The position numbers and the translations under genes were made by a program. Positions 5,737 through 64,000 of a stretch of DNA of 64,000 nucleotides are shown piece after piece. Positions within the stretch are counted from its first letter, which is position 1. Every line of letters begins with the position of its first letter. The notes beneath the pieces are model-generated. The model did not search any database. It was not told the origin of the DNA and saw only the letters and a program-made list of their open reading frames with translations. Origin of the DNA: a phage; sequence record PV805633.1. The stretch is one strand, 5' to 3'.

Positions 5737-6185
5737 GTGGCTCAAGACGCTAAGGAATATAAAATGCAACTGTTAACCGCCCGTGAATACCTGAAAGTAG
5801 ATATCGCTAACAACTATGGCTTAGACAAAAAGACATGGGATGAGCGTATTAGCTGGTTCGATGAGAACGAAGCTAACCTGCTCAATCTGGTAGATGAAGC
5901 TGAAGAATCTGCACTGTTCTACGCAGGTGTAAACGCTTGGAAAGATATGAAAGCTGGTAAGCCTATCGGTTATGCCGTAGCTCTGGATGCTACATCATCT
6001 GGCTTGCAGTTACTGGCTTGCTTGACTGGTGATCGTTCTGCTGCTGAATTGTGTAATGTAGTTAACTACATGGGCGAGAATGGTAAGCCATTACGACGTG
6101 ATGCTTATACAGTTATCTATCACAAGATGCTGGACATCCTTGGTGAATCATCCCGTATTAAACGTAGTGATACTAAGCAGGCCGT
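5737..6185 (+). CDS. phage RNA polymerase II large subunit, exon 1 (motif A)
   Basis: LDATSSGLQLLACLTGD matches T7 RNAP motif A; frame ends 2 codons into the insertion; RIKRSDTKQAV is the first half of motif B. Confidence 0.7.
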
Positions 6186-6991: not shown

Positions 6992-7787
6992 TATGACTGC
7001 ATTCTATGGTTCAGAAGCCAAGCCTAAAGAAGTATTCGGTGAAGGTATTCGTCTCAAGACTTTTGAGAATGTAATGGAAACAGTTGCTAGTGGACCTTGG
7101 GCACTGAACAAGTTCTTACTGCAATGTGGTGACCCGGATGCTAACCGTTACGTATGGATACTGCCTGACAACTTCCATGCTGTCATTAAGGTCATGGTTC
7201 CAGAAGTACAGACTGTTAACTTCTTAGGTAAGCCATTCGACATCACTCGTATGGTTCAGGGTACTGAAGATAAGACTCGTATGCTCTCTGCTAACATCAC
7301 CCACTCTATTGATGGAATGGTGGTACGTGAGATGCTACGTCGTTGTAACTTCAACATGAACCAAGTGAACTATGTTAAGCCCCTCTGTGAAGGAACCAGT
7401 GAGTATATGCTGGGTACTAGCGAGAACTACGACATGGTTAGTCAACTGTGGCATAACTATGAGAAATCAGGATTCCTGTCTACCCGTATCTTTGATTATC
7501 TGGATTCTGACTCAATTAAACTGGTTGATACAGATGTAATCATGGCTATGCTTAATACCATGCCTAAGAAACCATTCCCTGTAATGACCGTACATGACTG
7601 CTTCCGTTGCCACCCTAACTACGGTAATGACTTGCGTCGTCAGTACAATCAGATTCTGTCTGACATTGCTAAGAGTGATCTACTGGGCTTCATCCTGTCT
7701 CAGGTACTGAGACAAGAGTTCTCTGCTGGTAAGCTGGATGACAGCCTCTGGCAGGACATCCTTGAAACGGATTATGCATTAAGTTAA
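6992..7787 (+). CDS. phage RNA polymerase II large subunit, exon 2 (motifs B and C)
   Basis: MTAFYGSEAKPK matches T7 MTLAYGSKEFG; VHDCF matches T7 motif C IHDSFG; exon 1 + exon 2 = about 414 aa, close to N4 gp16. Confidence 0.7.
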
Positions 7788-8924: not shown

Positions 8925-8973
8925 GGGTATCTCTTATTTGGGGTTATAAACCTGAAAGGAATCCCTCTAGTTT

Positions 8974-9010
8974 GACCTCCCTATTGAAGGGAGGTCTTTT
9001 TTTTTTTTTG
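8974..9010 (+). terminator. rho-independent terminator
   Basis: GACCTCCC-loop-GGGAGGTC followed by a T run of more than 10. Confidence 0.75.
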
Positions 9011-26210: not shown

Positions 26211-26512
26211 CTAAAAGTACTAAAGAAACCGTCGTCAAAAAATATCATTGGATGGTGGCAGCACAGGTAATCTTCCAGCTTCCTAAAGCCGATGATGGTT
26301 CCCTGCTTACCATGAACACAATGCTGCTCACTGACGAACCTCATGTGACCTATAAAGATTTGGCCCGTGTCAATCACTCCCTGAAGATTAGTCTGGACCA
26401 GCGTTTCGACACCTCAGTTGACCTGAAAGACATTGTTTATCTGTCTATTAACAATCTGGGTCTGATGTCTGAACCAGAGTTCCAGGCAAACATGATTCCC
26501 AAGGGGGAATAA
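26207..26512 (+). CDS. hypothetical protein
   Basis: ORF track; start/stop coupling. Confidence 0.5.
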   Translation: MTKSTKETVVKKYHWMVAAQVIFQLPKADDGSLLTMNTMLLTDEPHVTYKDLARVNHSLKISLDQRFDTSVDLKDIVYLSINNLGLMSEPEFQANMIPKGE

Positions 26513-26796
26513 TGACTAAGCTCTCCGGTGGTCTTAATAACTACTATGTAGTTTTAATTAAAAATCCCCAACGGAAAGAGCAAGAGCCATATCAAGCAGA
26601 GTGTGAAGATATTATCCAAGCACTGGGCATGACCTTCGATGAAGGTTGTGCCTTTAAAGCTCTATGGCGAAATGCTGCTGCCCGTATGGGTAATGGTAAA
26701 CCAGGTAACTCTTCGGTGTACGACTCAGAGAAGATTGTGCATTATGCCAATCGAATATTGAAAAAGGCTTACAATGAAAGTAACCAACAACCATGA
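26512..26796 (+). CDS. hypothetical protein
   Basis: ORF track. Confidence 0.5.
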   Translation: MTKLSGGLNNYYVVLIKNPQRKEQEPYQAECEDIIQALGMTFDEGCAFKALWRNAAARMGNGKPGNSSVYDSEKIVHYANRILKKAYNESNQQP

Positions 26797-46034: not shown

Positions 46035-46081
46035 ACTTATATCGTATATAGGTAACCTACTCTACAGTAAGCCAGTGTAAG

Positions 46082-46100
46082 AAAAAAGCCCCGTAGGGCT
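46082..46100 (-). terminator. rho-independent terminator downstream of the corrected virion-protein stop
   Basis: Minus strand reads AGCCC-TACG-GGGCT followed by TTTTTT. Confidence 0.65.
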
Positions 46101-46119
46101 TTTATTAGTATGAAGTATT

Positions 46120-48074
46120 TTAAGGCATTTTCACATACCCAGGTATGCCTTGGGCTTGGCGTATATACCGTATAGCACGCTCCTGGTTTTCTTTCTCAGC
46201 CTCCCGATCTACGGAAGCCTGTGATCGAAAGTTACGAGGAGCCAGGTTTTGCGGATCAGCCTGTACCTGCCCCTGAGCATTTTTAAGCATTGCAGCAGCT
46301 CTAGCAACAGCCTCCTGTCGTGCAGGTAACAGTGCAGTAAGTGCAGTCTGACCTGTAGCAATCTTATTTGGGTGTTTGACAGTGCAGCTACGGCAGCATC
46401 ATATGCAGTCTGTGCTGCCTGAATATTCTGCATAGCCTGAGCACGACCAAGGTTACGTACACTTGCTTCAAGGGGTTCACCACGTTTTAACCCCTCAATC
46501 ATTTGGTCTACCTGACGGTCATTAAGTCGCAAGCCATTACCGGCTTCTGGGGTTTGCCCTATAGTTAGATAATCAATAAGACGTCCTGTATTACTTTCCG
46601 GTACGTTAGTCATTGCACGTTGAACAACAACACCTGCCATAGCAGGAGATACATTAGCACGCTGAGCAATATCATTGATACGAGCCACAACCCATTGTTT
46701 ATCTGCCCCCTTAAAGTCACCCTCTAGTAATCTGTTAGCAACTTCCCCAACAGTAGAAGTGTCATTTAAGGCAGGTAAATAATCAGGAGCAATACTTCCA
46801 GCATTGTCCTCCATAGAACGAGTACCAATCATACCGGTAGCCAGAGTAGATACTGCCTGATTACCTTGGTTATTCTGAACCATAGCTAGTGGGTCAGCCC
46901 CTACTTCAGCTTGGGCAATAACAGGTTTCATCTCTTCCCAAGTCATATCCTTATAAGCACCTGGAGTAGAGTTAGGCAGAGCAGCCCAAGTATCTTTAAG
47001 GTTACCGTTCTTACGGGCCTCGAAGATAGCCCTACCAATCTTATCCTGGTTCTCAGGAGAAAGAGGCTGGCTTTGCCAATCTGGACCAAGAACTTTAGGA
47101 GCGAAGTCTAGCAGAGTAGCTTGGTTAATCTGGAATGCACCAACAGGAGAAGCACCCTGCTTCGACTTCATACTATCCTGATGCTTAATTACATCACCAA
47201 TACTCATTTGAGTAATAGGAGTAGATGTACCAGCAAACTGGTAAGTAACATCATAAGGAGAACCCTGACGAGTACCAGCAGTACCTGGGGCAGACGTAGC
47301 ACCAACATTGTTACCGTAAACACCCGGATATGCTCGTGCAAGCATTTCCTGCAAACGTGCCTGTGCAACCGGAGACAGATGCTTACTATAAGATTCTGCC
47401 AGAATACGGGCATCGTCAGCATTCTCAGCACCACGAGTAATCAGTGCCATTACCCCCGTAGCAGCCTGACTATCAGCATCATTACGTTGAGCAACACCTA
47501 AATCAAAACGATTCTGTGCCTGATTAATAGCCTGACCACCCTGACCTTGAAGACGACTCAGCATGTCCAATTGCTGGTCAGCAGGGAGTGCAGACAATGC
47601 ATCACGGGTCTGACTTAATGCAGCATTAATACGGTTCTGGTCACCCGACTGATAAGCCTCAGACAGCAAACGAATAGCAGGGGAAGCATTATCTAATGCA
47701 GTGTTAGTATCCCGTAAACGATCAAAGTTATAAGTATTGTAGTCATTGGTTCCCTGCTGACCTTGTTGAGTCAACAGTGTACCTGCTCGCTCATCAAGGT
47801 TTTGGAGGGTACGCTGGTTTATCAATGAAGGGTCAACCCCCTGAAACAGTGCACCAGATGCCAAAGCATTGCGGTACTCAGTAGGGTCTTGGTACTGCAT
47901 AGCATTCATCATGACGGCATTGCCAGCCTCCTGCTTGGCAGCGTTCTGGAAATTACCCAGTGCATCACTTAAGCCGGAGGTGGCGTTACCAATCATGCTA
48001 CCAAATGTGCGAATGCTGTCACCAACTCCAGAGAAGTTAGGTGCATCAACATTTCTCCACGTTATCTGAGCCAT
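46120..48074 (-). CDS. virion structural protein (N4 gp51/52-like), with apparent 1-nt frame change near 46366-46372
   Basis: ORF track 46209..48074 ends in Leu-rich out-of-frame sequence; alternative frame gives a plausible Ala/Gln-rich tail ending at 46120 just before the terminator. Confidence 0.5.
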
Positions 48075-48086
48075 GATGGTTTCCTA

Positions 48087-48551
48087 TTAACGAGTTAATT
48101 TATTAGCTGCAATGTAAGCATCAGCCGAAGACTGGTCACGGTTCTCTGCTGTAGCACGACTACGAGCACGGTCTTCCAGTGCAGTGTTATAAGACTTAAT
48201 CTGATTATTCAGGTTAGTGTTAGTAACACTCTTAGTAAAGTTCAACTGGTCTTTGGCTAACTTGTTAGCCTGGAAACCACTATAGATACCTGCTAAGGAA
48301 CCAAGTGCACCGAGTCCTAGCTGGAAGGTAGGAATGTTCATTCCCAACTGATTAGCTGAACCAGATAAGAAAGAGGTGGGCGTAGTTAATCCTGTACCTG
48401 CATTCATACCAATAGCTGCACCCGGATTGTAGTTCATAGCTGGGGTATTAAAGTTCTGATTGTTATTAGACATCCAAGACATAGCAGCTGGCTGTGGGGT
48501 TTGGTTGCCTGTTAAGAATGACAAATCCATGGGGATTCTCCTGTTAAACAA
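48087..48551 (-). CDS. virion-associated protein
   Basis: ORF track; 8-nt overlap with upstream gene. Confidence 0.5.
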   Translation of the reverse strand: MFNRRIPMDLSFLTGNQTPQPAAMSWMSNNNQNFNTPAMNYNPGAAIGMNAGTGLTTPTSFLSGSANQLGMNIPTFQLGLGALGSLAGIYSGFQANKLAKDQLNFTKSVTNTNLNNQIKSYNTALEDRARSRATAENRDQSSADAYIAANKLTR

Positions 48552-51207
48552 GGTCAGTATTAAGAGTCATATCAGAGTAGCTGCCAACCATGTTTAAGGA
48601 CATGTCAGCTATATCCGAACCAGTCATAAGAGTACGTGAGAGGAAAGAATCCAACGACTCCATTGACACAAATTGCATAGGGTCAATTACACCCTGCCCA
48701 GCAGTACCAAACATTTCTTCATACTGCTTATTGATTGCCATCATATCAGTATTGTACTGCTGCATTACATTCTCTGCTTTCTGAATAGTAGCAGCCGTAG
48801 ATGCATTAATATACTGACTAATGCCGTTACCTACTGAACTAGTAAGCTGCATGATGTTTTGAGCATTCATCATTTCACTAGCTAAGGTAGATAAGGATGT
48901 ACCAGTAGACATAGCAGTACCAACATTCATAGCCACCATTGAAGCAACAGCAGCAATGATAAAGCCTAGCTTATCACCAAATAGTGAAGTAGATACTTTA
49001 GTGATAATAGATACCAGAATCATTGCAGCAATGGCGTTTGCTACAGCACCTACTATTACAGCAGCTAATCCAACAAAGCCAAGTGATGCACCAACTGCAC
49101 CATATGCCCCAAGAATACCTGCACCACCTGCACTACCAGCACCCATAGTAAATACGGATATAACGACAGCAACTACAACAACCACAATCTTAAAGGCAGA
49201 GGACTGATACCACTTTTTCTTAACCTTTTTATATGAGTTCATTACTAAGTAGGAACAAGCAGTAGACAGTTGAGTACTACGAGTCAGTGACATTGAACGG
49301 TAGATGTTAGTGTGTAGCGGAATAATGAATCCACTCTCCTCTGCATCACCCATCGCCTCAGCAACATCAATATTTACTGACTTATTTTTATATACCCTGT
49401 TGCTATGATGAAGGCCCAATACCCTAAGTTTACGGTAGGTGTTATTACCATCCTGCCAAAGCAACTCATATTCTTGCATAGAGTAAAACGTAGGAGTAAC
49501 TTCTAATCTTTTAGTCGAACCAGAGTTACCAGCAGTACGTATGTTCTTACGGGTAAGAGTTATATCTCCTGCATATCTGGCTCGTAGCTGTCCTTGCTTA
49601 GCACCAGACCACGCTTTACCTGAGTGGGTAGTTTCAAATACGTAGTTCCAACTAATAGTCATGTCATACTTATACTGCTTACTACTGTGTACCCTAAACT
49701 CTCGCTTAGGTATGACGGGGTATTCTGGCAGAGGTGGAGGTGTTCCAACAGTTTGACCTTCCTGCCTGTTCCACCATTCTACATACTCATCGACTGCATC
49801 ATTTGCTGCCTGATAGCCTGCAATCACTGCTTCCAGTGTAGGGTAGGTTGGATCAGGTGGGAATGCTTCAGTAGCCATCTGAAAGAAACGGTAGATGTAT
49901 TCCTTAGCAGTATCCTCTGGAGTATTTAGGGATACACCGAATGTGCCATAGATGTATTGAATATCACCTATGTCGTCATTCTTCTTAAGCTCAGTCACTA
50001 CTTTATTAAGCTTACCACCAGTAGCTTTATAGAGTGCCTTCTCACAGTGGGGGTAGATTGGGTCATTCTCTACCCATTGTTTATCATTCCTGATTGGAAT
50101 GAATGGATAGAATCGGTTATCAGTAGCTTCAGTATCAAACAGGGAATCAAGTGCAACGTTACCTGAGTTCTGCTTATAGATAAGCATCTTAGGTGTACCA
50201 ACAGCAGTCATCTCAGTATCAGTACTAGTAGTCTGGGATGAGTACTTACGAACCAGTGTCTCTGTAGTTGTAGTGATTGTATCTGTGCGAGTAACACCAC
50301 CACCTAAATCAACTACATTGGTAGTTACAGTAGTACTGGATTGAACCTCACCAAACTTTGTATGAGTCATTACCCTGTCGGATACAACCACAGTTACATC
50401 ATCAGGTTTCTCAGTGAACCCTCTACGGTAAACCTTAACGTAAGAGTTCCAGCTATCCACACTTGGTTCAGTAACAGTATTGTCTTCATCCGGTCTACCA
50501 TCAGAGTAAACAGAATGAGTCTGTATAGTCTTAGTAAGATTTGTTGTGTTAGCCGTCGTATCACTTGAGATGGTAGTCCATAACAGAGTAGACGGTAAGT
50601 CATCTTCGCTGTTATAGACAGTAGTCGGACCTACTACCGGTGGATTGGTAGCCGGGGACTTATAGAAAGTGTAATCAGCATAGAGATACAAAGCACCTGG
50701 TTCAAAGTTAGTAGGTGTGAATGTAATGGGGGAACCTCCATCTAAGGAGGTCATAGTGATTACATTGGTATCTTCATCAATGTCTACATCGAATCGTTCC
50801 ATGATTCGACTTGGGGCATTCTCATAAAGATACTGGTCACACCATTGCTCAAAGTCAGCAAAGCCAATCTCTGCTGCCTGAACATAGACAGATTCTCCAG
50901 CAGGTGGAGTAATTTGACCCTCTATAACAGTAGGGTCAATCTTAGCCAGTACACCTAACGAAGAACCTGCCATACCAACTTCTGAATCATAGTGGTTCTT
51001 GCTCCAGCTAGAGAACAGTCGCATACGTATACCAGGCCCCTTCAGATAACTATCAGAGATAGTGTCTGCCATAGTGAATCCTGTATCAGCAACAATCTTA
51101 CCAATGACTACAGTCTTCATATAGTTTGGACGTTTGTGTATATCCCCTGCCATGTTATAGACAGAGGATGCTACGTATACTTTGGTCTTACTACTGAATA
51201 AGCCCAT
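48544..51207 (-). CDS. large virion protein (887 aa) with C-terminal Gly/Ala-rich hydrophobic segments
   Basis: ORF track; position between capsid genes and vRNAP. Confidence 0.55.
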   Translation of the reverse strand: MGLFSSKTKVYVASSVYNMAGDIHKRPNYMKTVVIGKIVADTGFTMADTISDSYLKGPGIRMRLFSSWSKNHYDSEVGMAGSSLGVLAKIDPTVIEGQITPPAGESVYVQAAEIGFADFEQWCDQYLYENAPSRIMERFDVDIDEDTNVITMTSLDGGSPITFTPTNFEPGALYLYADYTFYKSPATNPPVVGPTTVYNSEDDLPSTLLWTTISSDTTANTTNLTKTIQTHSVYSDGRPDEDNTVTEPSVDSWNSYVKVYRRGFTEKPDDVTVVVSDRVMTHTKFGEVQSSTTVTTNVVDLGGGVTRTDTITTTTETLVRKYSSQTTSTDTEMTAVGTPKMLIYKQNSGNVALDSLFDTEATDNRFYPFIPIRNDKQWVENDPIYPHCEKALYKATGGKLNKVVTELKKNDDIGDIQYIYGTFGVSLNTPEDTAKEYIYRFFQMATEAFPPDPTYPTLEAVIAGYQAANDAVDEYVEWWNRQEGQTVGTPPPLPEYPVIPKREFRVHSSKQYKYDMTISWNYVFETTHSGKAWSGAKQGQLRARYAGDITLTRKNIRTAGNSGSTKRLEVTPTFYSMQEYELLWQDGNNTYRKLRVLGLHHSNRVYKNKSVNIDVAEAMGDAEESGFIIPLHTNIYRSMSLTRSTQLSTACSYLVMNSYKKVKKKWYQSSAFKIVVVVVAVVISVFTMGAGSAGGAGILGAYGAVGASLGFVGLAAVIVGAVANAIAAMILVSIITKVSTSLFGDKLGFIIAAVASMVAMNVGTAMSTGTSLSTLASEMMNAQNIMQLTSSVGNGISQYINASTAATIQKAENVMQQYNTDMMAINKQYEEMFGTAGQGVIDPMQFVSMESLDSFLSRTLMTGSDIADMSLNMVGSYSDMTLNTDLV

Positions 51208-51208
51208 A

Positions 51209-52051
51209 TTAATTCAGCCCGTTGTTAATCTTCAGCTTGGACAAAATGGTATCAATACTTGCGTTGGTGAATCCATTAGGTGGGTTCAAGCCTTCATCAA
51301 TAGTCTTCTGTGTAATCCATGCATCAGTAAACAACTTAGATGCTTTAACTTCTGCATCACGTTGGTAAGAAGTAATCTGTTGGGAGTACAACTCTTTCTG
51401 TTTACCTACGGAACCCCTAACTGCTGCACCGTCTGTACGAGTATCCAATGTCTGTGCACGTTGTGCCTCAGTCTGCTCAGTAATCAGTTTAAGCTGTTGA
51501 GGTAACATATGGTCAGCATTAAACAATGCAGCACAGTACGTTTCAGACTCAGTAGCAATCTTCATCTTAGTGAGAGCATATTCACTCTTAGCAGATAGTG
51601 CCTGAATCTTAGCCAGCACATACTGAGCTTTAGAAGTAGCCAGTTGCACTCGTGCAGTAACTGCCTGAATCTGTGCCATAGCAGCAGCCCAGTATGCTTG
51701 GTCACGACCGAGTAAGAACTGAACAGCGTTACTCATGCACGATTCCATCATAGCAATGTATGCTTTGGTATATTCACCACCAGTAATACGGTTAGCTTTA
51801 AACTCAGCTTTAAGATGGTTGTGTGCAGATTCCATTAAAGCATCAAACGTACCACTACCACCTACTTCACGGGTAGTAAGCGATTCATTCGTTACTTTAG
51901 TAATAGCATCAAAGATAGGAGAGTCATCACCACCAGGGATATCCCATTCAGGGCCAGACATATCAATGTCAGGGAGGGTAAAGTCATCACCCTTAGTTAA
52001 CTCTTCTAGGAGTCGGTTAGCTTCTACCTCAGCAGAACAAGACATAATCAT
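51209..52051 (-). CDS. virion protein, coiled-coil rich
   Basis: ORF track; start/stop coupling. Confidence 0.5.
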
Positions 52052-52121
52052 TCCTCTTGGTTCAAAAAGAAACGGCCCACGGAGTTACCCCAGTGAGCCG
52101 TGTTGAACTGTAGCTTATACG

Positions 52122-52763
52122 TTAATCGTTCAGGCTACCAGCAGCAATCTGTGCTTGAGCCAGTTGAGCCAATTCTGCTTCAGTCAGCGGAGGCAATACT
52201 TCAATGGAGAACTCACGTGCTTCTGTTGCACGGATATCTGGTAAGCCATTCTTACCTTTACGAGTCGTAATATTGATGAACTTACGCTCTTTAAGGAACT
52301 CGTAGATACAGTACGGAATATGATAACCATTGTCGGTAACTTCACCGAATGGAACAAACTTACGCACAGTACCCATATATTCGTTAGCTACGGTGATAAT
52401 CTCACCCGGCAGGTCTTTCTTCTTAGGGTCAAGGTTCTGGATACGTACACGAATCAGTCGAGTTTGTTCTGCACGAATCTTCTGACCCAGGGTCATCTTC
52501 TTAACACCAGCTTCCTGTTTTTCACCCAAAGGGTTAACAGCAGATTCTTTTACTTCTGGTTCATCTTTTGCTTGTGCAGCTTCAATTTTCTCACGGAGTT
52601 TCTCAACGGAGATGTTGTTAGAGAACTTAATATTCATCAACGTTGCACGTTGCTTAAGAACTTCAAGTTCGCTAGGCATTGCAATATCGTTAACGGTATC
52701 TTCGTTGCCCTGTACGTCCAGTTCTACGCCAGTGGTCGGTTTATCGTTAATGCTCATGTTCAT
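52122..52763 (-). CDS. virion/head protein
   Basis: ORF track; directly downstream of major capsid gene. Confidence 0.5.
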   Translation of the reverse strand: MNMSINDKPTTGVELDVQGNEDTVNDIAMPSELEVLKQRATLMNIKFSNNISVEKLREKIEAAQAKDEPEVKESAVNPLGEKQEAGVKKMTLGQKIRAEQTRLIRVRIQNLDPKKKDLPGEIITVANEYMGTVRKFVPFGEVTDNGYHIPYCIYEFLKERKFINITTRKGKNGLPDIRATEAREFSIEVLPPLTEAELAQLAQAQIAAGSLND

Positions 52764-52794
52764 ATTTCCTGTGGTTCAACTAGTTTTATTAAGA

Positions 52795-52812
52795 GGGGGA
52801 CACTAGTCCCCC
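52795..52812. other. 7-bp GC hairpin between major capsid gene and downstream gene
   Basis: GGGGGAC-ACTA-GTCCCCC; T-rich flank is on the plus strand only. Confidence 0.35.
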
Positions 52813-52830
52813 TTATTTTATTTAGGACTA

Positions 52831-54033
52831 TTACAGAGGAGCAACAGTCTTAATCAGAGCCAGACGTTCCGGACGTTTAACCAGGATACCGTAGTACCAC
52901 TTGATGGAACTGAAACCAGTCTCACCATACGGGTCATTACGGTCAGCAGTTTCACGACCAGGCATCTTAGTCATGATGGAGAACTTAACAGACTTACCAT
53001 CAGTCTGGAAGCCAATGGTAGAGAAGGAGTCATCACCAACTACCAGCATCGGGAACACGTCATAGTGTTCTTCACCACTAACCATAGAAGAACGGTAACC
53101 CGGGTTAGTAGAGACTTGAGCACCAGCACCTGCCCAATGCAGCATCTCAGGAACCTGGATAATACGGAACTTGTCGATACAACCAATCTCACCATTCATC
53201 AGAGTACCAGCATCAGCATAGTGCTGAACCTCGATGAATGCTTTGTTACCGAATAGGTCTTTCATCGCTTTCAGTTCTGGAACAAGTTCAGAACCAACGT
53301 ACATTACACGAGTACCACCAAGTACTTTGGTATCGGTAAGTTTAGAACCAGTGATGATAGTAGTCTGGGTCGGAGTACGGTTCTCAGTAAGAATCTGGTC
53401 AAGACGCATCAGGTTCTTATAAGAAACTACAGATGGGGTAGCACCTTCACCAGTGATGGTAGCATCGGAGGTAGCAGCACCTGCATACAGTACAGTACCA
53501 GCAGCAGCCAACAGATCTTTCTGGAGAACAGCTTCAGTCAGCTGTACAGCACCGTTCATCAGTTCACGAGACAGGTGTTCTTTCAGTTGGTCATCAGAAT
53601 CAAAGTCCAGAGACTCTTGAGTAAATTCGTAGAAGAAACCGAACTTATGAATGGAACCTTCACGAGACAGACGAGTAAAGCCTACACGGTTAACACGACC
53701 ACCGTTCTCTGTCAGCAGAGGCAGTTTAGAAGTGATGTTACCAACGTCTCGGGAAGAACCATACAGGTTACCATTAACAATGGTAGCACCATTAGCATCA
53801 ATACCCTGGTCGTTGATGTTCTTATCGTCAAGCAGTGGAACGTATTCATACACCTTAACAGTCTTACCGTAGTTCTTCGGCATGTTAATGGTGTTAGCCA
53901 GTGGCATGAAGTACTGGTCTTTACGGGACTGAATAATAGCTTTCTTCAGCCAGTAATAGGTATTCATCTGGTCGGAACCAGTACCATCAATGCTAGATTT
54001 CTGGCCGTCAATTGGGGCGTTATAGTTTAACAT
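52831..54033 (-). CDS. major capsid protein (N4 gp56-like)
   Basis: 400 aa; position between portal and virion proteins; size matches N4 MCP. Confidence 0.6.
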
Positions 54034-54049
54034 ATCATCTTATTCCTGT

Positions 54050-55270
54050 TTAAAGACTACCCGGTACTGGGAGTTTAGCGAAATCTTCATCACTCATAGC
54101 GAGTGGGTTTACAATAGGTGTTGCTTTACGTGTAGCAGCCCGATTAAGGGAAGCTGCTTTAGCTTGCTCACTGTTAGCCAGAGTCTGCTTAGGTTGTGCT
54201 ACACGCACTACCGGCTGAACTACTGGTTTAACTGCTTGTACCGGTTCTGGCTTAGCCACTCGGTTAAATGCCCCCTGCTGTGCAAGGAGGTTACCGACGT
54301 GGTTATAAGCCTGAATGAACGGAGTACCTACCGGAATCTGGCCTAACATTTGAAGACGGTTCACTTCGTTTGCAATGGTGTCATAAATACCATTCTCACG
54401 TTGTTCGTGAATAGTCTGGAGTAGGCCACGATTCTGGTAAAGAGCTTCTTTACTGGCAGCATCCCATGTCGAGCCGATAACACCTAATGTAGCTTGTCCT
54501 TCTTGAGTAGACTTTAAGTCGTCAATTTCGGTTGCAAAATCTGCTTCGGTGTCGGTAACACGGTGATTGCCACCCTGGTAGTTAATTTCTTCATCTGGAT
54601 TAAAGTCCAGAGGATCTGTACCAGAGTCTTTGAGCAACTTCTTAATGGCTTCAGGATTCTTTTTATCCAGGTCAATAAGGAAAGAAAGTTTATCCTCATC
54701 CATCAAACCGTTGTTCTGTAACATCAGCATTACCTTACGGTAAGGCTTTAGTTCTTGCATCTTACGAGTATAGTTAGCACCCATCTGCATCAGGCTAATG
54801 GCCTCCTCCGGTGAACGGGGAGTAATTACTTTGCCGTTAGCTTTAAAAGGAGCCATCAACTTCTCGTAACCTTCTTTATAGTTGAAGTCAGCAGGCAGAC
54901 CTTCAGACTGTTTGCCTTCTTCTTTCTGTTCCTGGCCTGGTTCAGTAGTAGAAGGTTCAGCTTTAGTAATCGGCTCGCCGTTACTATCAACTTCTGTGTC
55001 AACAACTTTATCATCAACTTTATCAGAAGTTAAAGGATTTGCTGAATCTTCTTCATCTGGTTCGGCTTCAGGGGAGGTTTCTTCAGTTGGTAGGTCTTCA
55101 ACAGCAGGGGTGTCAACTTCTTCTTCAGGAGTCTGTACGCCGTTGGTTTCTGGGTTGTTCTGAGTGGAAGTATCTTCCTCAGCAATAATTGCTGGGGCTT
55201 CCATATTCAGAATCTCATCATCCGACATTGCGAGAATGTCGGAAGCTGTGGTTGCAGCTTCCGTAGTCAT
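54050..55270 (-). CDS. head assembly protein (possible scaffold), acidic N-terminus
   Basis: 406 aa between portal and MCP. Confidence 0.35.
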   Translation of the reverse strand: MTTEAATTASDILAMSDDEILNMEAPAIIAEEDTSTQNNPETNGVQTPEEEVDTPAVEDLPTEETSPEAEPDEEDSANPLTSDKVDDKVVDTEVDSNGEPITKAEPSTTEPGQEQKEEGKQSEGLPADFNYKEGYEKLMAPFKANGKVITPRSPEEAISLMQMGANYTRKMQELKPYRKVMLMLQNNGLMDEDKLSFLIDLDKKNPEAIKKLLKDSGTDPLDFNPDEEINYQGGNHRVTDTEADFATEIDDLKSTQEGQATLGVIGSTWDAASKEALYQNRGLLQTIHEQRENGIYDTIANEVNRLQMLGQIPVGTPFIQAYNHVGNLLAQQGAFNRVAKPEPVQAVKPVVQPVVRVAQPKQTLANSEQAKAASLNRAATRKATPIVNPLAMSDEDFAKLPVPGSL

Positions 55271-55289
55271 AGGAAATATCTCCGGTTAA

Positions 55290-55634
55290 TTATTCGTCTT
55301 CAGGTTCAGCACGAACTGCGTCGAGTTCTTCTTCTACCTGTAGAATAACGTCAGCTTCGTTTTCGCCCATACGAATGGCAAGATCAAGCCAACGACGTAA
55401 GTGACCAGCAGCTTGAGCCATGTTCAGTGCATCTGCACGGTTATTAGGTTCAAGCAGTGGGTCACCAGACTCTTGCACGTAACGTGCACAATCTTCCGTA
55501 CAGAACTGGCGAAGGATTACTTTACGGAACAGTGGATTCTCCAGAAGTTTACGTACATCTTCTGCATGTGCAACTGCACCTTTAGCAGCTTCCAGTCGAT
55601 GTTCCAGTCCAGCGATTGTTGATTCTTTACTCAT
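55290..55634 (-). CDS. hypothetical head protein
   Basis: ORF track. Confidence 0.45.
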   Translation of the reverse strand: MSKESTIAGLEHRLEAAKGAVAHAEDVRKLLENPLFRKVILRQFCTEDCARYVQESGDPLLEPNNRADALNMAQAAGHLRRWLDLAIRMGENEADVILQVEEELDAVRAEPEDE

Positions 55635-55647
55635 GTGAAGGTCTGCC

Positions 55648-57918
55648 TTACAGGTTCATGCCAAGAGCCGATGCTGGGTCTTGGCTAGGGTCATAGTATT
55701 GGGAACTAAGTGAATAAGACGGGTCTTGCTGAGCAGCTAAATCCCGTTCTGGTATAGAGTTCACGTTAGTCAAAGTATTATATCCAACAGCTGCAGATAT
55801 GTTGGGGGTAGTTTCCCCTTCTTTAATAGGTGTTGTCAATGCCTTAGTTATTTGAAGGTTCTGGTTTCCTTGGGATTGTGCTTTTTGTTTTTCCATATCA
55901 CGAGCATGTTTAGTACCAGATTCCTGTTCCAGATAATCCAGGTCTTTAAGGTCACCACTAGAAGCAGCCTCTTTAGCTTTAGCCATATTGAGTGCAATCT
56001 TACTTTGCAACTCTTCATTCTCAAGCTGTGCTTTCTGAATTGCCAATTGCTTAAGCTGTTCTTCCATAGGGTCTGGTTGTGGTTGCCAAGTACGTAACTC
56101 ATGAGCCAGGTCAGGCATACGTTTAAGCTCTGCAATCTTAGCTACGAGGGATAATGTAATAGTCTGGTCAACCGTATTACCCAATGTTTGAACCATGAAG
56201 CTCAAGTCCTGGGATTTCTGGTTATCAATTTCAGCAGTGTTAATATCAACCTCAATGTCGAAGTTACCTTTAAGATCTTCACGGTTAATCTCTACATACT
56301 GCTCGTTAGTAATACGTACTACTTCCTTCTCAGATAAGAACACAGCATTCATTGCACAAATCTTAGTACCAATGTCTGCCATACCCTTAGCTAATCGACG
56401 AAGGATTGCCATCTCACGCTTGGATGCTGCATCAAGTGCACCACGAATACCAGCAGCCACATCTCCGTATGCTGAACCAGTTACACCACCGGAGAATGCT
56501 TTAACACCAGTTAATGATTCAGCTTCCTGGTTTTGCATCTGGGTCATTATTATTGCCGACTGAGGTAACTCAGGGAACTTATGTTCCATAATGGCTTGAC
56601 TAGGATTACCCTGCATTGGGTTGTATTCATAGTCTTGCCCATCGTCATAACGACGTCGGTTTAGTGTATCCAACATCCCTTTAGGATAACCACGTTGACC
56701 ATTTGCACTTCGACCTAACAGGTCAATCATCCCACGCATAGTTGCACCAAGAATTGCTTGGTTATCCCCCAACAGTTCAGCATCAGCTTCACCAAAGAGT
56801 TCACGTTTACGAGGCATGTAAGGAACAACTACTAAAGGTAATTTGCCGTCAGGGAATGGGTTCCTCTCCATACGAATAAGGGTAGAACCAATCCAGGTAG
56901 CAACAATAGGTTCCAGAGAACCATCATCATTGATGTCGTAGAATCCCCAGTATTCATAAGCAACAACTTTCTTACGTAGTGCATCCTTAAACTGAAAGTC
57001 ACTAGGGGTTTTACTTTCATGGTCTGGGTCAGTCATAGGACTGGAGCTTTCCCAGTCAATCTTATCTAAGTTGTGATATATGTCCTTGTTCTTCATGAGG
57101 TCTGCTTTGCATGTCTCAAACGAGATAACTGCATACAGAGCCTTATCCAAATCACCATTACAGCTTGGGTCAATAACTACGTTATTAGGGTTAAGCATTT
57201 CAACGGTAGGTCTGTTAACTAGTGCCTTCTCTACTTCTACTTCAGTAACTCCCGTTTGAATTGCATAGGTAGCTTCCCCGGTTTCATTGAAGTAGTTAAC
57301 AGCTTCCTTAATATCTTCCGGCATTGTTTCATCATACTCACGAGGATTCTCTGCCTGAAGCTGTAAAGCTTGTTGAAGAACATCAGCTTGTTCCTGGTTC
57401 TCAATTGGATACAACTGGAATACTGGTGTTTCTGTTTTAATCTTAACAGTCTTACGTTCCCAACCAATACGAGCAATACCAGTGCCATCATCTACGACAC
57501 TATGTACATAATCATCTACCAGTTTCACTTTATTAAGCTGAGTACGGAATTGGTAGTTAAGAACTAATTCATTCTGGCGTGCAGCTAACTCATCTTCAAA
57601 AGTAACAGGGGTTACTTTAAAGAGCTTATTAGACGAGAGAAAAGGCTCAGACAATGGAGCATATCGCCATTCTGCCTGACGGCGAACCAGTCTGGGTTGG
57701 ACTTGGGAACGTCCCTTAACCTTTGGGGGTTTAGCTTTACCTTTAACTTCCATCAGGTCATTCCACTCACGAATCTGTGCCATAATTGCATCGTGAGCAG
57801 GTTTAGCTGATTCCAAATCACCCTTCAGTAATTGGATACTTGGTTCCTTCTTCCAGTCCGTTAACTTCTCTGATTGAGCCGGGTCTGGTAAAGGCTTAAA
57901 AGTGTCTTGGTGTTCCAT
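55648..57918 (-). CDS. portal protein (N4 gp59-like)
   Basis: 756 aa; position upstream of MCP. Confidence 0.55.
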
Positions 57919-57926
57919 AGTTAATC

Positions 57927-58427
57927 CTATTCAAAAAGTTTACGGTCAGCCTGAATTTGCTTACCCAACTCAATTAGTTGGTTGTCACGGAGTCTAACAG
58001 TTGCCCGGAGTTCTTCAACCAAACGTCTGCCTTCTTCAAGACTGTTGTCGAGTCTGGCTGCATGGCTTGCAAGACTTCTGCACTCAAGGGTTCCGGCTTC
58101 GGCTTGACGTTTATATACCGATGCTCGTCTTTCAGACTGTTGCATCCGGCTGTCGTAATCACTGCTAACGCGAGCAAGCTCGCTTGCGTAATTACTCTCA
58201 GCCGTCTGCAACCGGGAAGTAAGTAACCCGACTTCATAACTATGGTTTCTTTGGAGAGCATTGTATTTGTCCTGTAGTTTTTGTGTTGCCTTCTGGTCTT
58301 CAACCTTTTGAGCATCCCATCTCTTTTGGACAGTAGACTGTCCATTGGAATTGCCCCAAAAGTAAATGGTGGCCCCGAGGACCACCACCAGAAGATAAGG
58401 CCAACCTTTAGAGATTAGCATCTTCAT
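57927..58427 (-). CDS. i-spanin (Rz-like)
   Basis: N-terminal [17 protein letters not shown] then coiled-coil periplasmic domain; start set at internal Met. Confidence 0.55.
57974..58237 (-). CDS. o-spanin (Rz1-like) lipoprotein embedded in the i-spanin gene
   Basis: Alternate frame inside i-spanin; signal peptide with lipobox-like TAGC; Pro-rich mature region. Confidence 0.5.
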   Translation of the reverse strand: MKSGYLLPGCRRLRVITQASLLALAVITTAGCNSLKDEHRYINVKPKPEPLSAEVLQAMQPDSTTVLKKADVWLKNSGQLLDSVTTN

Positions 58428-59042
58428 TACATGCCTCCAGTGGTACATTACCGATTCGGTTAGCTACCCAACCATACGTAAAGTCTGGCATGTTCAATGA
58501 GGTGTAGTGGTTCAATTGTTTAGCATCAAGCAACTTAATCATTACCTGACATGCTGCAACTTTGCCTCGTTTTTTCTGTAATGCTTTATATGCATTAACA
58601 GTACCTGCACCGACTTTACCATCAACTTGTATTTTAGGGTAGTCTTTGCCATCACGGGACATTTCATTAAGGGATTGCTGCAACCACTTAGCTGGTCTGG
58701 TTACACCGGTATTAACACCAGCATCAACCAGTTTGTGTGTTACAGCAGGAGATATATCAGCGAAGGCTACGAAGTTAGGCTTAATAACGTAGTCATCAAT
58801 GTATATCTCAGCAGCCATTTCTTTCGATAAACCCTTCATGGAACCATCCCAACCATACTCAGTAGCCAGAACTTCTTTGTGAGACTTAGCTACTGATTGG
58901 GTAATACCATGATTGGTTTCCCCACCTGGGTCACGAGGATTGTTTACGTACCCCCTTCCATATAGAACACTGCCCCCAGAATAGCAGCGATAACTCCTCC
59001 CACCGCACCCCCTTTTGCAGCAAGTTTCTGTTTAGCTTTCAT
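58408..59042 (-). CDS. SAR-endolysin, GH108-like N-acetylmuramidase with PG_binding_3-like C-terminus; apparent 1-nt frame change at a G5 run (plus strand C5 at about 58951-58955)
   Basis: ATG-initiated MKAKQKLAAKGGAVGGVIAAILGAVFYMEGG stops 4 codons after the run; downstream frame continues GYVNNPRDPGGETNHGIT...DGKVGAGTVNAYKAL. Confidence 0.55.
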
Positions 59043-59292
59043 GGGAATCTTCCTTTGGATGGAAACGTATTAGTCTGCCCACAATGTTTAAGGCAAACAG
59101 TGCGATTGTAATACTGGAACCATGTGGAATATCTTCAAGGATGTGACGTGGTAGTCCTGTTAGCATTGGTTGGATAATATCTACTGTAGAAAACAGAATT
59201 AATCCAAATGCACTAATCTGAACAGATGCCCACTTCCAGGACTTCTTCCAGTTAGGAACTAGCCCTATTTTTCTTTTTAGCTTGCGAACCAT
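59032..59292 (-). CDS. holin-like two-TM membrane protein
   Basis: ORF track 59032..59358, start set at internal Met; two hydrophobic helices; stop overlaps endolysin start. Confidence 0.4.
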   Translation of the reverse strand: MVRKLKRKIGLVPNWKKSWKWASVQISAFGLILFSTVDIIQPMLTGLPRHILEDIPHGSSITIALFALNIVGRLIRFHPKEDSHES

Positions 59293-59609
59293 GCGAATAT
59301 CTCCCGTCTTGCAGCAGCCAATACACCAATAATTGCACCTGCCCCAGCCCATACCCACTTACCAAAAATCCCAGCACCTGCAACCTTATGTTTGATGGTG
59401 ATGAACTCTTCAATGGTAGGTTCGGACTTAGTGATGCTCTCCTCTACCCGTTTAAGTCGGGTACTGAGGTCACCCATAGACTCGCTTAGCTTTTTAATAG
59501 ACTCTTCCATTTTCTCCCTATCCCTCGATTCACGAGTTTGGTTTTCGAAAATGTTTCTCAGTCTCTCTTCAAGTCTGGCTAGAGTTACGTTATCTGGTTC
59601 ATTTCCCAT
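59277..59609 (-). CDS. coiled-coil protein with C-terminal TM (lysis accessory candidate)
   Basis: ORF track; C-terminal GAGIFGKWVWAGAGAIIGVLAAA. Confidence 0.4.
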   Translation of the reverse strand: MGNEPDNVTLARLEERLRNIFENQTRESRDREKMEESIKKLSESMGDLSTRLKRVEESITKSEPTIEEFITIKHKVAGAGIFGKWVWAGAGAIIGVLAAARREIFAWFAS

Positions 59610-59854
59610 AGGGATTTTCTCAGGTTAGTTAAGTCGTAATTGACTAAAACAGTCTACCTAATGACTTGTTTTTGGTACAACAAAACCCACCCCCGCAACC
59701 TAGTTGGGCTGGTTAAAGCCTGAAATATGGAACAGCAGTCACCAAAACAACAAAGACCATACTTAGGATTGAGACAACCATATGGGTGGCTATATGCGTA
59801 TAATATTTTTAGGGAGCAAGTATACACCTGCTCCCCGGAGCTATCTCAGAGCCA

Positions 59855-62395
59855 TCAGAACACAAAATCCAGTTGCATAAGCTGCTTCAACTGAATCTGC
59901 ACGGTACTATCCTGGGTTACTTCCGGAACAGTTAAGCCAGAAACACCGATTGCAAAGTCCGCAATGAACCCGGTAGTAGGATTCCTTACTATATCCGCCC
60001 CAGTACCCCCAGAACCTGTACTTGCAAACTGAGTCTGCTTAGAACCAAAAGCATTACCTGTACCTGCAATAACTAGTTGCCATACACCCCTGCCGAGCGT
60101 ACCTGGAATACTCAAGCTACCTGAACCAGCAGCACGGAATATCTTGGTATTCTCATAGAACATACACTCTTGCAACGTGCAGGTACTTCTCTGCCCGGTA
60201 CTCAGTACCTGATTACCCTGGAAGCTAAAGTTAGTCTGGTCATTCAGAACGAAGTCGCAGAGCATGGATGCTTGCAACTGCACGTTCATATCCAGAGTGT
60301 TGGCATGTGCAATCAGGGACTTAGGAATGCCTCCAATACGATAACCGGGGGAGCGGTAGTTCAGGTTCAGCGTGTTCAGTTGCTTAATACTGTTACCCAC
60401 CAGCTTAACGGTTTGCCCACGATATACTTCAGTTGCGTTGGTGCCGGCGTTAATCATGACACCTTCTGCTTTATTGCTGGCGGTTAAGCACTTAAGCACT
60501 ACAGTATTATGACTTACGTCAATATCCTGGTACACCTGGTATGCGCTATCGCCACCTCCAGTTGATATAGCTACCCCATCAAAAGCTCTAAGCTCGCAAT
60601 AGTTGTTGTGAATCTTAACAAAGGGGTTCGGATACGTCGCTGCCGTAGCCTCCCCACCCCCACCTACATCGATGCTGCGGGTGTACCTGCCGCCCGCAAG
60701 CGGACCGGTACTGGTACTATCCGGAATATCCCTGGAGCGCACATAGTTGTTAGAGATTATGAGGTTATATGGTTCATAGTTTGGGTGCCAGCCTGAACCA
60801 CATTTAGCGTAGATACCGACTACGCCATGCTCCAGGCAGAAGTTATCAGTGATAATTAACTGACCCCCACCGTGAAAATCGATGCATTTTCTACGGCAGT
60901 TAAAAACGAAATTGCGGCTGGCTGTTATGTTGCGTATTCTCCTGTTTCTACCATGTCCGATGCCATAGCCAGGGTCAAAGGATGCATTCAAATCATCAGC
61001 ACCGTTCGGGTGTCCGATGTTGCTAATTACATTATCAAAGTAGCCCATTTTGTAGCCACACAGAACACCTATACCGTTTGAGTAACAGTTGGTTATTGTG
61101 TTCTTTGAAATAATAATACCTTCTGGAACATCGCTTTCATTTGGGTAGTCCGCCATGTCCGGTGAGGCAATATTTCTTATGCCAATCCCAACACCTGCAT
61201 AGTTAAAGCCAGATATCTTACACCTTTCAACGGTTATATTTTTACAAGCTCTTTGAATCTTAACACCGCAACTCCAGCTGCCAATATACCCGCCAAGAAA
61301 AGTACCCCAACTGCTTTGGTAGCTTCCTGTTGGATTACCCGCACTGTCATAGGATGGGAATTGTCCGGACACCTCATTAAATGCCCCTGTGTTATAACTA
61401 GAGGTATCAACTGAGTTATTTGGTCCCAACACATTAACTCCACCGGCTGTATTGTAGCCAAATCGAGATTCTCCTTTCTCTGCATAACCAGTAGGCGCAT
61501 CTATAGCAGGGAACTTGTTAGGGCCACGCACTGTTACAGACACAGTCACGTTCCGGCAATTTACAAGGGCAAGCCCATCCAGTCCGTGCGTATTCACAAT
61601 TATAGTGCCGTTGGAGATACGAATACCTTCCTTATTTACCAGTGCCAGACACGGACTGTAGTTACGTGTACCGTCGCTGAAGTCAGGCTCAGTAGGGTAC
61701 GTAGAAGCCAGTGCAGGATTTTTCGAACTAAATACGTCTTCCCGCCTAAATCAATATCTCCAGTGGTGGCGTCGAAACATGCCTGCACTGCCAACGTATC
61801 GTCGGCAACGCCATCACCAACCGCCCCCCCATCCACGTGGATCGCCATTATCACGCCAGCGAGCCATTTGTAGTTCGGGGTATTTTGTTGCACCTTCAGG
61901 GTCTGAAATCTGTCCTCGTAGTACCGCATCCCCAACACTCACCCAAGCACCCAGACCAACGCCACCAGAAGTTTCGGGGGTTGAATCAGCAGGAACCTCT
62001 TTAGGTAATGCTCCATCCCAACGGTACTTACCATCAGTGAATACAACCAGTTCATTCTTAGTATTAACTGTTACACCAGTAGCAAATGAACCAGGTAGGG
62101 TTACATACTCTTCACGAGCAACAGCCAGTGCACCTAAGTCCACACTACCAGCAGAATGAACTAATACTCCAGCAGGGCTAAGACTTACAGCAGTAACCCC
62201 TGAACCAATATCAGCAGGTAAGGAATAAGCACGCTGTGACGCTTTGTCATAAATGACTTTGTAACCAGTAAGCAGAGCACCCACTGAGAAGTAAACAACT
62301 TCCGATTGTTTAACCCCAAAGTGACGGGCTACTGCTTGTTTGTTGGTTAATATTCCGGTTGATCCTCTTCCACCTTGTGAGAATAATTCGTTCAT
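59855..62395 (-). CDS. tail spike with pectate-lyase-like beta-helix; apparently one gene split into three ORFs by two frame changes
   Basis: ORFs 61814..62395, 61636..61938 and 59855..61597 overlap in different frames; junctions near the T5 run at about 61719-61723 and in the 61815-61860 region; 59855 ORF frame stays open upstream of its GTG start. Confidence 0.45.
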
Positions 62396-62422
62396 GTAAA
62401 CCTCTTTGTTTTTCTATAAGAA

Positions 62423-62440
62423 ACTGCCCCGAAGGGCAGT
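62423..62440 (-). terminator. rho-independent terminator
   Basis: Minus strand reads ACTGCCC-TTCG-GGGCAGT followed by TTTCTTAT. Confidence 0.5.
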
Positions 62441-62444
62441 CTGT

Positions 62445-64000
62445 TTAGCCAATGGACATACGGGAGTTAGCGAAATCATACGCATCTTGCTTTTTAGCAA
62501 ACTGCGTTACGAAGTAGTCGCTGATACGAATTACACACCCGTTCGTTGACTGCAACTTAAGACGGCAAGTTCCTGCTGTTGCCGCCTGTCCTACACCGAA
62601 AGTATGCACCCATTCTCCTGGTGATGTGTATAGCCCCCCAAGAGGTACAGAATCCGCAATAGATGCCGTAACATCACCACTTACCAGTTTAAGACTGCAC
62701 CCCCATACAATCTGATAATACTGCGCTATGTTAGCCACTGGTTCACTCAAGAATAGGGTATATCCGGCAGGTATTACTAACTGAGCGCAAGTATCGCTTA
62801 ACACACCGTCAGTAACCGATGTGGCGTCTACGGTGCTCGTCCCGACAAACGCCCACGGCCCGCTCCCTGAAAAAGATTGTGAGTTTAGTACCGTACCAGT
62901 ATGTGGGCGCTTTATTCTTCCGTTCAGCTTTGTACCACGAAGTGACAAATCCAGGTTACTGGCCACAGTGGATGAAACACTCGCCACAGATTCAACGTGA
63001 ACCTTATCGCCGACGTAGCCACCTACGATAAGGTCGTGCGCAATAATCTGGCTTCCGTCGTCAACATTGATACTATACACACCAGTCGCGGCATCAAACC
63101 TACAGTTTTTTGCCACCAGGGTAGAGCTTATCAGCTCAATATTGTTAAAATGGCACCCTTCCGCAACAGTTACCGGAACATTCTCTATTTTTAACTGTCT
63201 CGGGGTTTGCGGAACCCCGTCAACAGTTACTGTGTCTGCGGTGGCTACCAATTCGAACCATACGTTGCTGATAGTGGGCGGTACGACAGGAGCCAATCCA
63301 TTGCCTTTAAAATAAATACCGCCACCAGGGCATGCCTCAATGATACAGTCACGAATTGCTATGCCGTCAAGACCACCACCAGGAGCAGGACCTCCGACAG
63401 CGCCATTAAGGTAAATGCTGTACGTATTAATTCCTGCAAAATGGCAATCCCTCCATGTATCAGCCCCGACATGCATGCCTGGGTCTGATACCGCCATATG
63501 GCCGTAATTACACGCCAGATAGCTACAGTGTTGGTACGTGTTGCCGATGTTTCCTTTCGGCTTGTAAAATCCAATATCAAGACCGTCAAAGGCAATATCC
63601 CTAAAGTTCCATCGGCCATCAAGATTAGATGATCCAAAAGCTATGCCTGTACCAACAGGGGTGGTTATGTCCCCTTCGATGAGGAAGTTCTGGGCGTGCC
63701 GATACTGCCACAGGCGGGAAGACTCGGTTAGAGTTAAACTTGTTTCCCCGGAGGATGGTTTAAATTTTACCTGATAACCAGTACCAATTATGTTGGCATT
63801 TCCCGATGTGTATTGCCCCGTGTAAGTACCAGGAGTGACCAGGAGATCATCTCGCCATCCAGTTGCATCAATAGCATCCTGTAAGTCTAAGTAATTACCA
63901 GAATGTTTAATATCATCAAGATTGTCAGCAACAGTTCTCGTCCCATGACCAACGGATGCAGAACCAGTTGTCTGTGAATAGAAGTCCTTAACTTCAGCGA
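62445..64000 (-). CDS. second beta-helix tail fiber/spike protein, 5-prime partial (runs off window)
   Basis: ORF track 62445..63497; frame stays open upstream of that Met for at least about 70 codons. Confidence 0.45.
   Translation of the reverse strand, partial: AEVKDFYSQTTGSASVGHGTRTVADNLDDIKHSGNYLDLQDAIDATGWRDDLLVTPGTYTGQYTSGNANIIGTGYQVKFKPSSGETSLTLTESSRLWQYRHAQNFLIEGDITTPVGTGIAFGSSNLDGRWNFRDIAFDGLDIGFYKPKGNIGNTYQHCSYLACNYGHMAVSDPGMHVGADTWRDCHFAGINTYSIYLNGAVGGPAPGGGLDGIAIRDCIIEACPGGGIYFKGNGLAPVVPPTISNVWFELVATADTVTVDGVPQTPRQLKIENVPVTVAEGCHFNNIELISSTLVAKNCRFDAATGVYSINVDDGSQIIAHDLIVGGYVGDKVHVESVASVSSTVASNLDLSLRGTKLNGRIKRPHTGTVLNSQSFSGSGPWAFVGTSTVDATSVTDGVLSDTCAQLVIPAGYTLFLSEPVANIAQYYQIVWGCSLKLVSGDVTASIADSVPLGGLYTSPGEWVHTFGVGQAATAGTCRLKLQSTNGCVIRISDYFVTQFAKKQDAYDFANSRMSIG

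Follow-up and report, generated by a model that had tools for sequence, protein, structure and literature searches.

Two beta-helix tailspike genes at the right end of the G7C-like coliphage sequence PV805633.1, one of them with an interrupted reading frame

The right end of sequence record PV805633.1, of which a stretch of 64,000 nucleotides (nt; hereafter the window) was analysed as a whole, carries two adjacent tail genes and raises the question of what these genes encode, whether both are intact and whether they specify depolymerases, as a first-pass annotation had proposed. The two genes were found where that annotation had placed them, both on the minus strand, and are called here gene A (gp66-type, receptor-binding protein 1 or RBP1) and gene B (gp63.1-type, RBP2). 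They form a beta-helix tailspike gene pair of a G7C-like (N4-related) coliphage and were read as tailspikes that determine host range because of their position, homology and predicted fold and of the literature on the genus (PMC11990801, PMC6393563). In our judgement, the locus is quite probably a branched adsorption module of the type standard for G7C-like podophages (Gamaleyavirus), the two single-nucleotide insertions or deletions (indels) that break gene B being artefacts.

Region 46000-59800, comprising structural and lysis genes, showed 93-95% DNA identity to G7C, PhAPEC7, ST4, Bas96 and other members of Gamaleyavirus (N4-related Schitoviridae), and identity of the window core to G7C amounted to 94.8%. 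G7C proteins mapped onto the window were collinear, mostly with 95-100% identity, and the virion RNA polymerase (3748 amino acids, aa) was intact. All genes at 55-64 kb occurred on the minus strand. In Gamaleyavirus, the adsorption locus is flanked by homologs of N4 genes 63 and 67. Likewise, the tail locus ran here from the gene 63 homolog to the end of the window, a placement shared with G7C, PD38 and St11Ph5. Two tailspikes are common, indeed the rule, in this genus and display pectin-lyase-like domains on variable anchors (PMC11990801). In G7C, gp63.1 and gp66 make up a branched structure (PMC6393563), for which Prokhorov et al. 2017 is the source cited both in PMC6393563 and in PMC10743462 (PDB 4QNL).

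Gene B extends from ATG 62395 to TGA 59855; it follows the gp66-type gene directly and precedes the gene 63 homolog, all three being on the same strand. It has its own ribosome-binding site (AAAGAGG), located downstream of a hairpin that separates it from gene A (Table 1). As written, no single uninterrupted frame led from its anchor to its C-terminus; the gene read instead as an open reading frame (ORF) of 193 aa (62395..61814), an orphan ORF of 100 aa and a GTG-initiated ORF of 580 aa (61597..59855). DNA alignment with the tailspike gene of Peacock and with two metagenomic contigs encoding intact homologs located two frame breaks, both in homopolymers. The first one is a run of seven G (G7), after which the frame ends at TGA 61816..61814, i.e. 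after 193 codons; the second is a run of five A (A5), and the original frame resumes from ...KNPALASTYPTEPDF... on. All three of the closest intact relatives examined had G6 and A6 at these sites, and besides the G7 run the 64-kb window contains just one other G/C run of seven or more. Removal of one G and addition of one A yielded a single ORF of 2541 nt and 846 aa, with no other defect in the gene.

Three-frame translation showed that the piece between the two breaks was out of frame with both flanks and held two TGA stops. Compared with the three intact relatives in the GDGVADDT frame, its 101 nt displayed 5-7, 0 and 15-19 differences at codon positions 1, 2 and 3, respectively. This pattern therefore indicates that the piece evolved as coding sequence under purifying selection in that frame. 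Read-through or recoding of UGA within the shifted piece was ruled out, since the codon-position pattern fits the other frame and gene B itself ends in TGA. An exact-pattern scan of the G-run junction, allowing either G6 or G7, returned no match among IMG/VR and JGI metagenome contigs. The gp63.1 gene of St11Ph5 was also suspected of being frame-broken, given a 295-nt gap upstream of the annotated gene; it proved to be a shorter intact gene starting with MNEMFSQGG. As a separate observation, the homologous tailspike gene of Enterobacter phage vB_Ecl_MII_004 (PQ039555.1, 1447-4115) is annotated as at least seven small 'hypothetical protein' fragments and has G5 at the run equivalent to G7; this record appears to contain many homopolymer indel errors.

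At the protein level, residues 1-204 of gene B matched several solved N-terminal domains in phmmer searches, namely those of CBA120 TSP1 (4oj5, 2.8e-82), G7C gp63.1 (4qnl, 1.1e-71), Shigella phage B2 Gp48 and CBA120 TSP3 and TSP4. Family PF18668 (Tail_spike_N) was found at 4.7e-26 (91 bits vs a cut-off of 25), and the anchor DNA was 89-91% identical to that of PhAPEC7 and Bas96. These matches identify the N-terminus of gene B as the conserved anchor of branched-spike systems, which would dock RBP2 on the spike complex. For the remaining ~650 residues, the PDB offered no sequence relative. When the repaired protein was modelled with AlphaFold from a 38-sequence alignment (predicted local distance difference test score, pLDDT, 83.3; predicted template modelling score 0.75), the chain began with small beta domains at the N-terminus and a helical linker, formed a long beta-helix between residues ~191 and 700 and ended in a C-terminal beta domain, the latter being kept across the alignment. 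Forty homologs of the receptor-binding part were found in a large protein collection, the closest being intact proteins of 813-844 aa with 76-93% identity (93% for protein P0001). Over its full length, repaired gene B was 65% identical to the tailspike of Agtrevirus P46FS4 and 63% to that of Kayfunavirus Peacock. Six charged residues (E306, K307, H462, R502, D506 and H508) were invariant in homologs down to 21-30% identity, and complete E. coli genomes contained no match to the domain. Repaired gene B is a known kind of module in a new combination of domains.

Gene A was open from the window edge (63998) to its TAA stop at 62445 and its protein ended in ...FANSRMSIG; by comparison with PD38, a 5' portion of ~390 codons lies beyond position 64000. 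The fragment was 77% identical to aa 387-906 of the 906-aa 'tail fiber protein' of PD38, so that RBP1 has a homolog at the same locus position in another Gamaleyavirus member, and it matched phrog_27367 ('tail fiber protein') at 1e-138. Its 48 homologs included P22-type E. coli prophage tailspikes with a head-binding domain (85-89% identity), and remoter relatives were spikes with T7-type or Tail_spike_N anchors. Among complete E. coli genomes, prophage tailspikes matching the domain occurred in only three. Because its relatives carry P22 head-binding, T7-type or Tail_spike_N anchors, the receptor-binding part of gene A is another mobile cassette. Its AlphaFold 2 (AF2) model (pLDDT 90.5) showed a beta-helix followed by a beta-sandwich. 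Foldseek aligned this model with Klebsiella phage Kp7 gp52 and the K2-2 tailspike at ~5e-10, and also with CBA120 TSP4, KP32gp38 and the Sf6 and Fri1 spikes, while the last ~160 residues gave local matches to CBM22 and CBM4 modules (template modelling score on the target ~0.5). Charged residues R129, H176, E249, R300 and D302 were invariant in homologs down to 21-30% identity.

Table 1. Features of the tailspike locus in the 64,000-nt window of PV805633.1.
Feature	Coordinates	Strand	Description	Basis
Gene A, C-terminal part (RBP1)	62445..64000	-	517 codons + TAA stop	frame translation
Gene A right-handed beta-helix body	62964..63860	-	fragment residues ~47-345	AF2 model mf60ca78f91d9, Foldseek
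Gene A C-terminal beta-sandwich domain	62448..62951	-	residues ~350-517, carbohydrate-binding-module-like	AF2 secondary structure
Hairpin between genes A and B	62424..62439	-	GC-rich, CTGCCC-TTCG-GGGCAG then TTTCTT	sequence read; unique match
Gene B (RBP2)	59855..62395	-	2541 nt, 846 aa after repair of two 1-nt indels	
Gene B N-terminal anchor domain	61928..62395	-	aa 1-156	phmmer, PF18668, DNA identity
Near-invariant 47-nt stretch	61841..61887	-	end of RBP2 anchor, directly upstream of G7 run	alignment
G7 homopolymer	61824..61830	-	one G above intact relatives (G6), first frame break	DNA alignment
Out-of-frame piece	61724..61823	-	~100 nt, 34 conserved residues; encodes AVGDGVADDTLAVQACFDATTGDIDLGGKTYLVR, beta-helix N-terminal cap	
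A5 homopolymer	61719..61723	-	one A below relatives (A6), second frame break, restores original frame	DNA alignment
Gene B beta-helix body	60239..61718	-	repaired residues ~226-719	
Gene B C-terminal beta-rich domain	59858..60238	-	residues ~720-846	AF2 secondary structure

Both genes had been described in the first-pass annotation as pectate-lyase-like, with an N-terminal GDGVADDT motif and Asn/Gly-rich repeats. The motif is in fact present only once in the six frames of the whole window (61795..61818, minus strand), within gene B, and gene A lacks it. Glycine was indeed elevated in both proteins (11.8-12.9% vs 6.8% in six large proteins encoded elsewhere in the window), whereas asparagine was so in the receptor-binding part of gene B (8.2% vs a reference of 5.7%) and not in gene A (4.8%). 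The structure prediction suggested by the same annotation gave a right-handed beta-helix in both proteins, matching solved members. The pectate-lyase label is thus appropriate for the general pectin-lyase-like beta-helix fold but not for membership of a lyase family: Pfam pectate-lyase families (Pectate_lyase_3 PF12708 and relatives) did not match either protein at E<=1. Similarly, scores for PF13229 (Beta_helix) stayed below the gathering score of 25.9 (23.4 bits for A and 13.8-17.1 bits for B), and NCBIfam produced no match to either protein. The only Pfam match of the GDGVADDT piece was a sub-threshold one to the endosialidase N-terminal extension. A profile of the gene B family found the cap region only, in GH55 glucanases, mannuronan C5-epimerases, the PfbA adhesin, the Phi92 colanidase, an exopolygalacturonase and endosialidases. 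Since this cap is common to hydrolases, epimerases and adhesins, GDGxxDDT is to be taken as a generic beta-helix N-cap, which is silent on lyase chemistry. The proposal of depolymerases that set host range was retained in so far as A and B are tailspikes expected to bind, and probably to process, surface polysaccharide; depolymerase activity itself is plausible. The invariant charged residues of both proteins would be compatible with an active site, the type of which they do not identify.

As to their origin, comparisons of sequences suggest that both receptor-binding domains are horizontally exchanged cassettes. The gene A cassette was common to Bp4/PD38 and P22-type E. coli prophages. The gene B domain (~620 aa) was encountered in Enterobacter cloacae T7-like phages (61-75% identity), Agtrevirus P46FS4 (75%), Ackermannviridae of Shigella boydii (65-67%), Kayfunavirus Peacock and LS2 (65%) and the P22-like Hf4s (46%), and in no other Gamaleyavirus of the phage collection searched. 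Peacock and Hf4s were both isolated on E. coli 4s, whose O22-like O-antigen is the receptor of Hf4s. The DNA itself was mosaic, with segment 61932-62416 resembling PhAPEC7 and Bas96 (89-91%) and segment 59847-62026 resembling Enterobacter phages (83-88%). Moreover, the 47-nt stretch at the end of the RBP2 anchor was almost invariant, from ATGGCTCGC... on, in a Kayfunavirus and two metagenomic phages with different anchors, as seen over the last 12 to 37 of its 47 nt in these three relatives. It is likely to be a recombination joint for swapping receptor-binding domains. A conserved motif at the anchor end was described previously (PMC10408124), and the stretch fits this description at a level short of base-by-base comparison. 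Together with that report, the DNA mosaic and the near-invariant stretch support the view that the present combination arose by cassette exchange.

Gene B was not the only broken gene. Mapping of G7C proteins onto the window revealed two further unique 1-nt deletions, one in the endolysin gene and one in the homolog of gp51. The endolysin gene (gp61 homolog, 58411-59042, minus strand) had lost one nucleotide at 58947-58959, inside the ...YMEGGYVNNP... motif, which we take to hold the GH108 catalytic Glu. The window reads GGAAGG-GGGTACG at this site, as compared with GGAAGGAGGG in G7C and PhAPEC7 and GGAAGGGGGT in St11Ph5, and all three relatives have the extra base and an intact gene of 636 nt. 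As a result of the deletion, the frame of residues 1-31 differs from that of residues 23-211, and the membrane-anchor segment is split from the muramidase domain. In the gp51 virion-protein homolog (gene 46129-48074, minus strand), the deletion occurred at 46360-46373 (ACCCA-AATAAG in the window, ACCCAGAATAAG in G7C and ACTCAGAATAAG in PhAPEC7), which puts the last ~80 residues in another frame and shortens the called ORF from 654 to 621 aa. Propagation of a lytic phage is not to be expected if its endolysin is dead. The broken endolysin therefore makes it very probable that the window sequence contains indel errors, and for gene B, too, such errors are then the most economical explanation.

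Several observations weigh against this reading of the locus, on the side of the sequence as well as on that of function. All four frame-breaking indels fell in the last 18 kb of the window. Those of gene B are of opposite sign and ~107 nt apart, which uniformly scattered errors would seldom give; by a rough estimate, the chance for any pair among four indels to fall so close is ~2%. The exact truncated 193-aa product was not on record in public collections, which leaves the allele without an independent read-out. Exact look-up of the portal protein was equally negative, and that of the gene 63 product yielded only a 1.2-kb contig. On the functional side, neither beta-helix matched a Pfam, NCBIfam or PDB sequence family above threshold, and structural neighbours at similar scores comprised lyases, hydrolases, epimerases and a non-enzymatic adhesin, so that no enzymatic class could be assigned. 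Furthermore, the homologous position in G7C is filled by a deacetylase, not a depolymerase (PMC10743462). In view of the clustering of indels, some weight was therefore left for a real biological event in gene B. If both indels were real, gene B would have been recently inactivated; its only products would be an anchor stub of 193 aa and perhaps a C-terminal fragment that starts internally and stays unattached, and infection would proceed via RBP1 alone. The two changes do stand in the given sequence, such a close pair within one gene is unlikely to arise from independent random errors, and spike loss is tolerable in some G7C-like phages, St11Ph5 infecting independently of O-antigen recognition (PMC6393563). 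Yet the second indel would have brought no benefit, as the shifted piece holds two TGA stops, and selected compensation cannot explain the pair; no further defect accumulated in 2.5 kb, and the endolysin deletion, hard to square with a viable phage, points to sequence error generally. We thus regard a recent inactivation as unlikely, though to be reckoned with. That both breaks lie in homopolymers, of which G7 is among the two longest G/C runs of the window, could also suggest functional slippery sites (+1 then -1 programmed frameshifting, or transcriptional slippage) or a phase-variation switch at the G run. A +1 shift on the G run and a -1 shift on A AAA A would, by reasoning, restore the ancestral protein exactly. 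However, two independent low-efficiency events in series would be required, both runs are short and are G6 and A6 in intact relatives, and reversion of the G run alone would leave the A5 break, making such slippage or switching highly improbable. It is scarcely more credible that the G7/A5 pair is real and holds the cap out of frame, the 193-aa stub being the usual product and full-length RBP2 arising by rare slippage; if true, this would be a stochastic host-range switch in a lytic podophage. G6 and A6 in relatives, the codon pattern, the otherwise clean gene and the lack of compensatory benefit favour an artefact or a very recent event. Most likely, the two gene B indels are errors of the assembled sequence, and the real phage probably makes an intact RBP2 of 846 aa.

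With regard to function, the deacetylase found in G7C and the adhesin among the structural neighbours are in line with spikes that bind or modify their glycan without depolymerising it, either as deacetylases or as pure adhesins. Known esterase spikes, however, use an SGNH domain and not a beta-helix, and 4qnl did not match gene B beyond the anchor. The nearest phage matches of both helices, i.e. HK620, Sf6, the CBA120 TSPs and Klebsiella depolymerases, cleave glycans, and acidic and basic residues were invariant across homologs of 21-30% identity (E306, D506, H462, H508 and R502 in B; E249 and D302 in A). Alleles of gp63.1 with a lyase domain also exist, e.g. Alt63 (PMC10743462). Spikes devoid of depolymerase activity were accordingly considered improbable for this pair.

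For the branched adsorption module favoured here, the following course can be proposed from the G7C and CBA120 model. Proteins A and B would each form a homotrimeric spike; RBP1 trimers would attach to the tail via the N-terminal part lying outside the window, and RBP2 trimers would dock on the complex through the conserved anchor domain. Each beta-helix groove would then bind a specific O-antigen or capsule repeat and most likely cleave it processively or, less likely, only bind or modify it. Such glycan processing would bring the tail to the outer membrane and set the host range, and the specificities of the two spikes might be alternative or sequential. Earlier descriptions of Gamaleyavirus already cover the module and its architecture as well as the beta-helix receptor-binding domains and the horizontal exchange of these, and the finding is real but ordinary in this respect. 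New are the pairing of domains and the first Gamaleyavirus with a B-type domain in the collection searched. This domain links the phage pools of E. coli, Enterobacter, Shigella and Salmonella and provides a further example of cassettes exchanged at a conserved joint. Which O-antigen or capsule types are open to attack is defined by the two receptor-binding domains, a point of modest practical value. Automatic gene calling would fragment gene B and lose its conserved cap motif; gene B, the endolysin and gp51 need read-level checking before the genome is used, e.g. in phage therapy or spike engineering.

The hairpin between genes A and B sits where, between gp66 and gp63.1, the G7C annotation has a 16-nt hairpin repeat. 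The exact 16-nt repeat that flanks gp63.1 in that phage is absent here, a different hairpin standing in the same place, and the one observed was not flagged by a consensus terminator scan. Elsewhere in the window, downstream of the homolog of decoration protein gp17, a GC hairpin at 8967-9009 (GACCTCCC...GGGAGGTC) followed by 13 T has the look of a strong intrinsic terminator of the ordinary kind. The homolog of gp16 (middle-transcription RNA polymerase subunit, 5764-7787) was split into aa 1-156 (5764-6228) and aa 142-405 (6993-7787). The ~760 nt between these parts (~6229-6992) carried two short Cys-rich or HNH-like ORFs (6294-6530 and 6569-6853), neither of which matched any G7C HNH gene; the split may be due to a homing-endonuclease insertion. 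None of the five G7C HNH endonuclease genes searched for (gp2.1, ST15.1, gp24.1, gp41.1 and gp47.1) had a counterpart in the window. The G7C gp41 homolog (26512-26766) was matched for the first 85 of 156 residues only.

Among named systems, CBA120 TSP1-4 (Kuttervirus) and the O-antigen-cleaving HK620, Sf6 and P22-type spikes displayed the same layout of anchor, beta-helix and C-terminal domain. Their beta-helices superposed with those of A and B, but at only 9-14% sequence identity, and catalytic residues are therefore not transferable from them. The tailspikes of P46FS4, Peacock/LS2, the E. cloacae T7-like phages and Lederbergvirus Hf4s, for which no solved structure or published enzymatic assay was found, share the beta-helix domain of gene B on other anchors (T7 gp17-type, P22 head-binding and Ackermannviridae). 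RBP1 of Bp4/PD38 has the C-terminal ...FANSRMSIG and the locus position of gene A, but represents a diverged allele, the gene A domain being closer to P22-type prophage tailspikes (85-89%) than to it (77%). The gp63.1/gp66 pair of G7C occupies the same genome position, between gene 63 and gene 67, in the same gene order, and the rest of the G7C virion module was 93-100% identical to the window at the protein level. Nevertheless, gp66 is unlike the receptor-binding part of gene A; in the window it matched only the anchor-like region of B, and weakly so (36% identity). As for gp63.1, it aligned with the N-terminal 165 residues of gene B at 1.1e-71, but bears an SGNH esterase domain where gene B bears a beta-helix domain.

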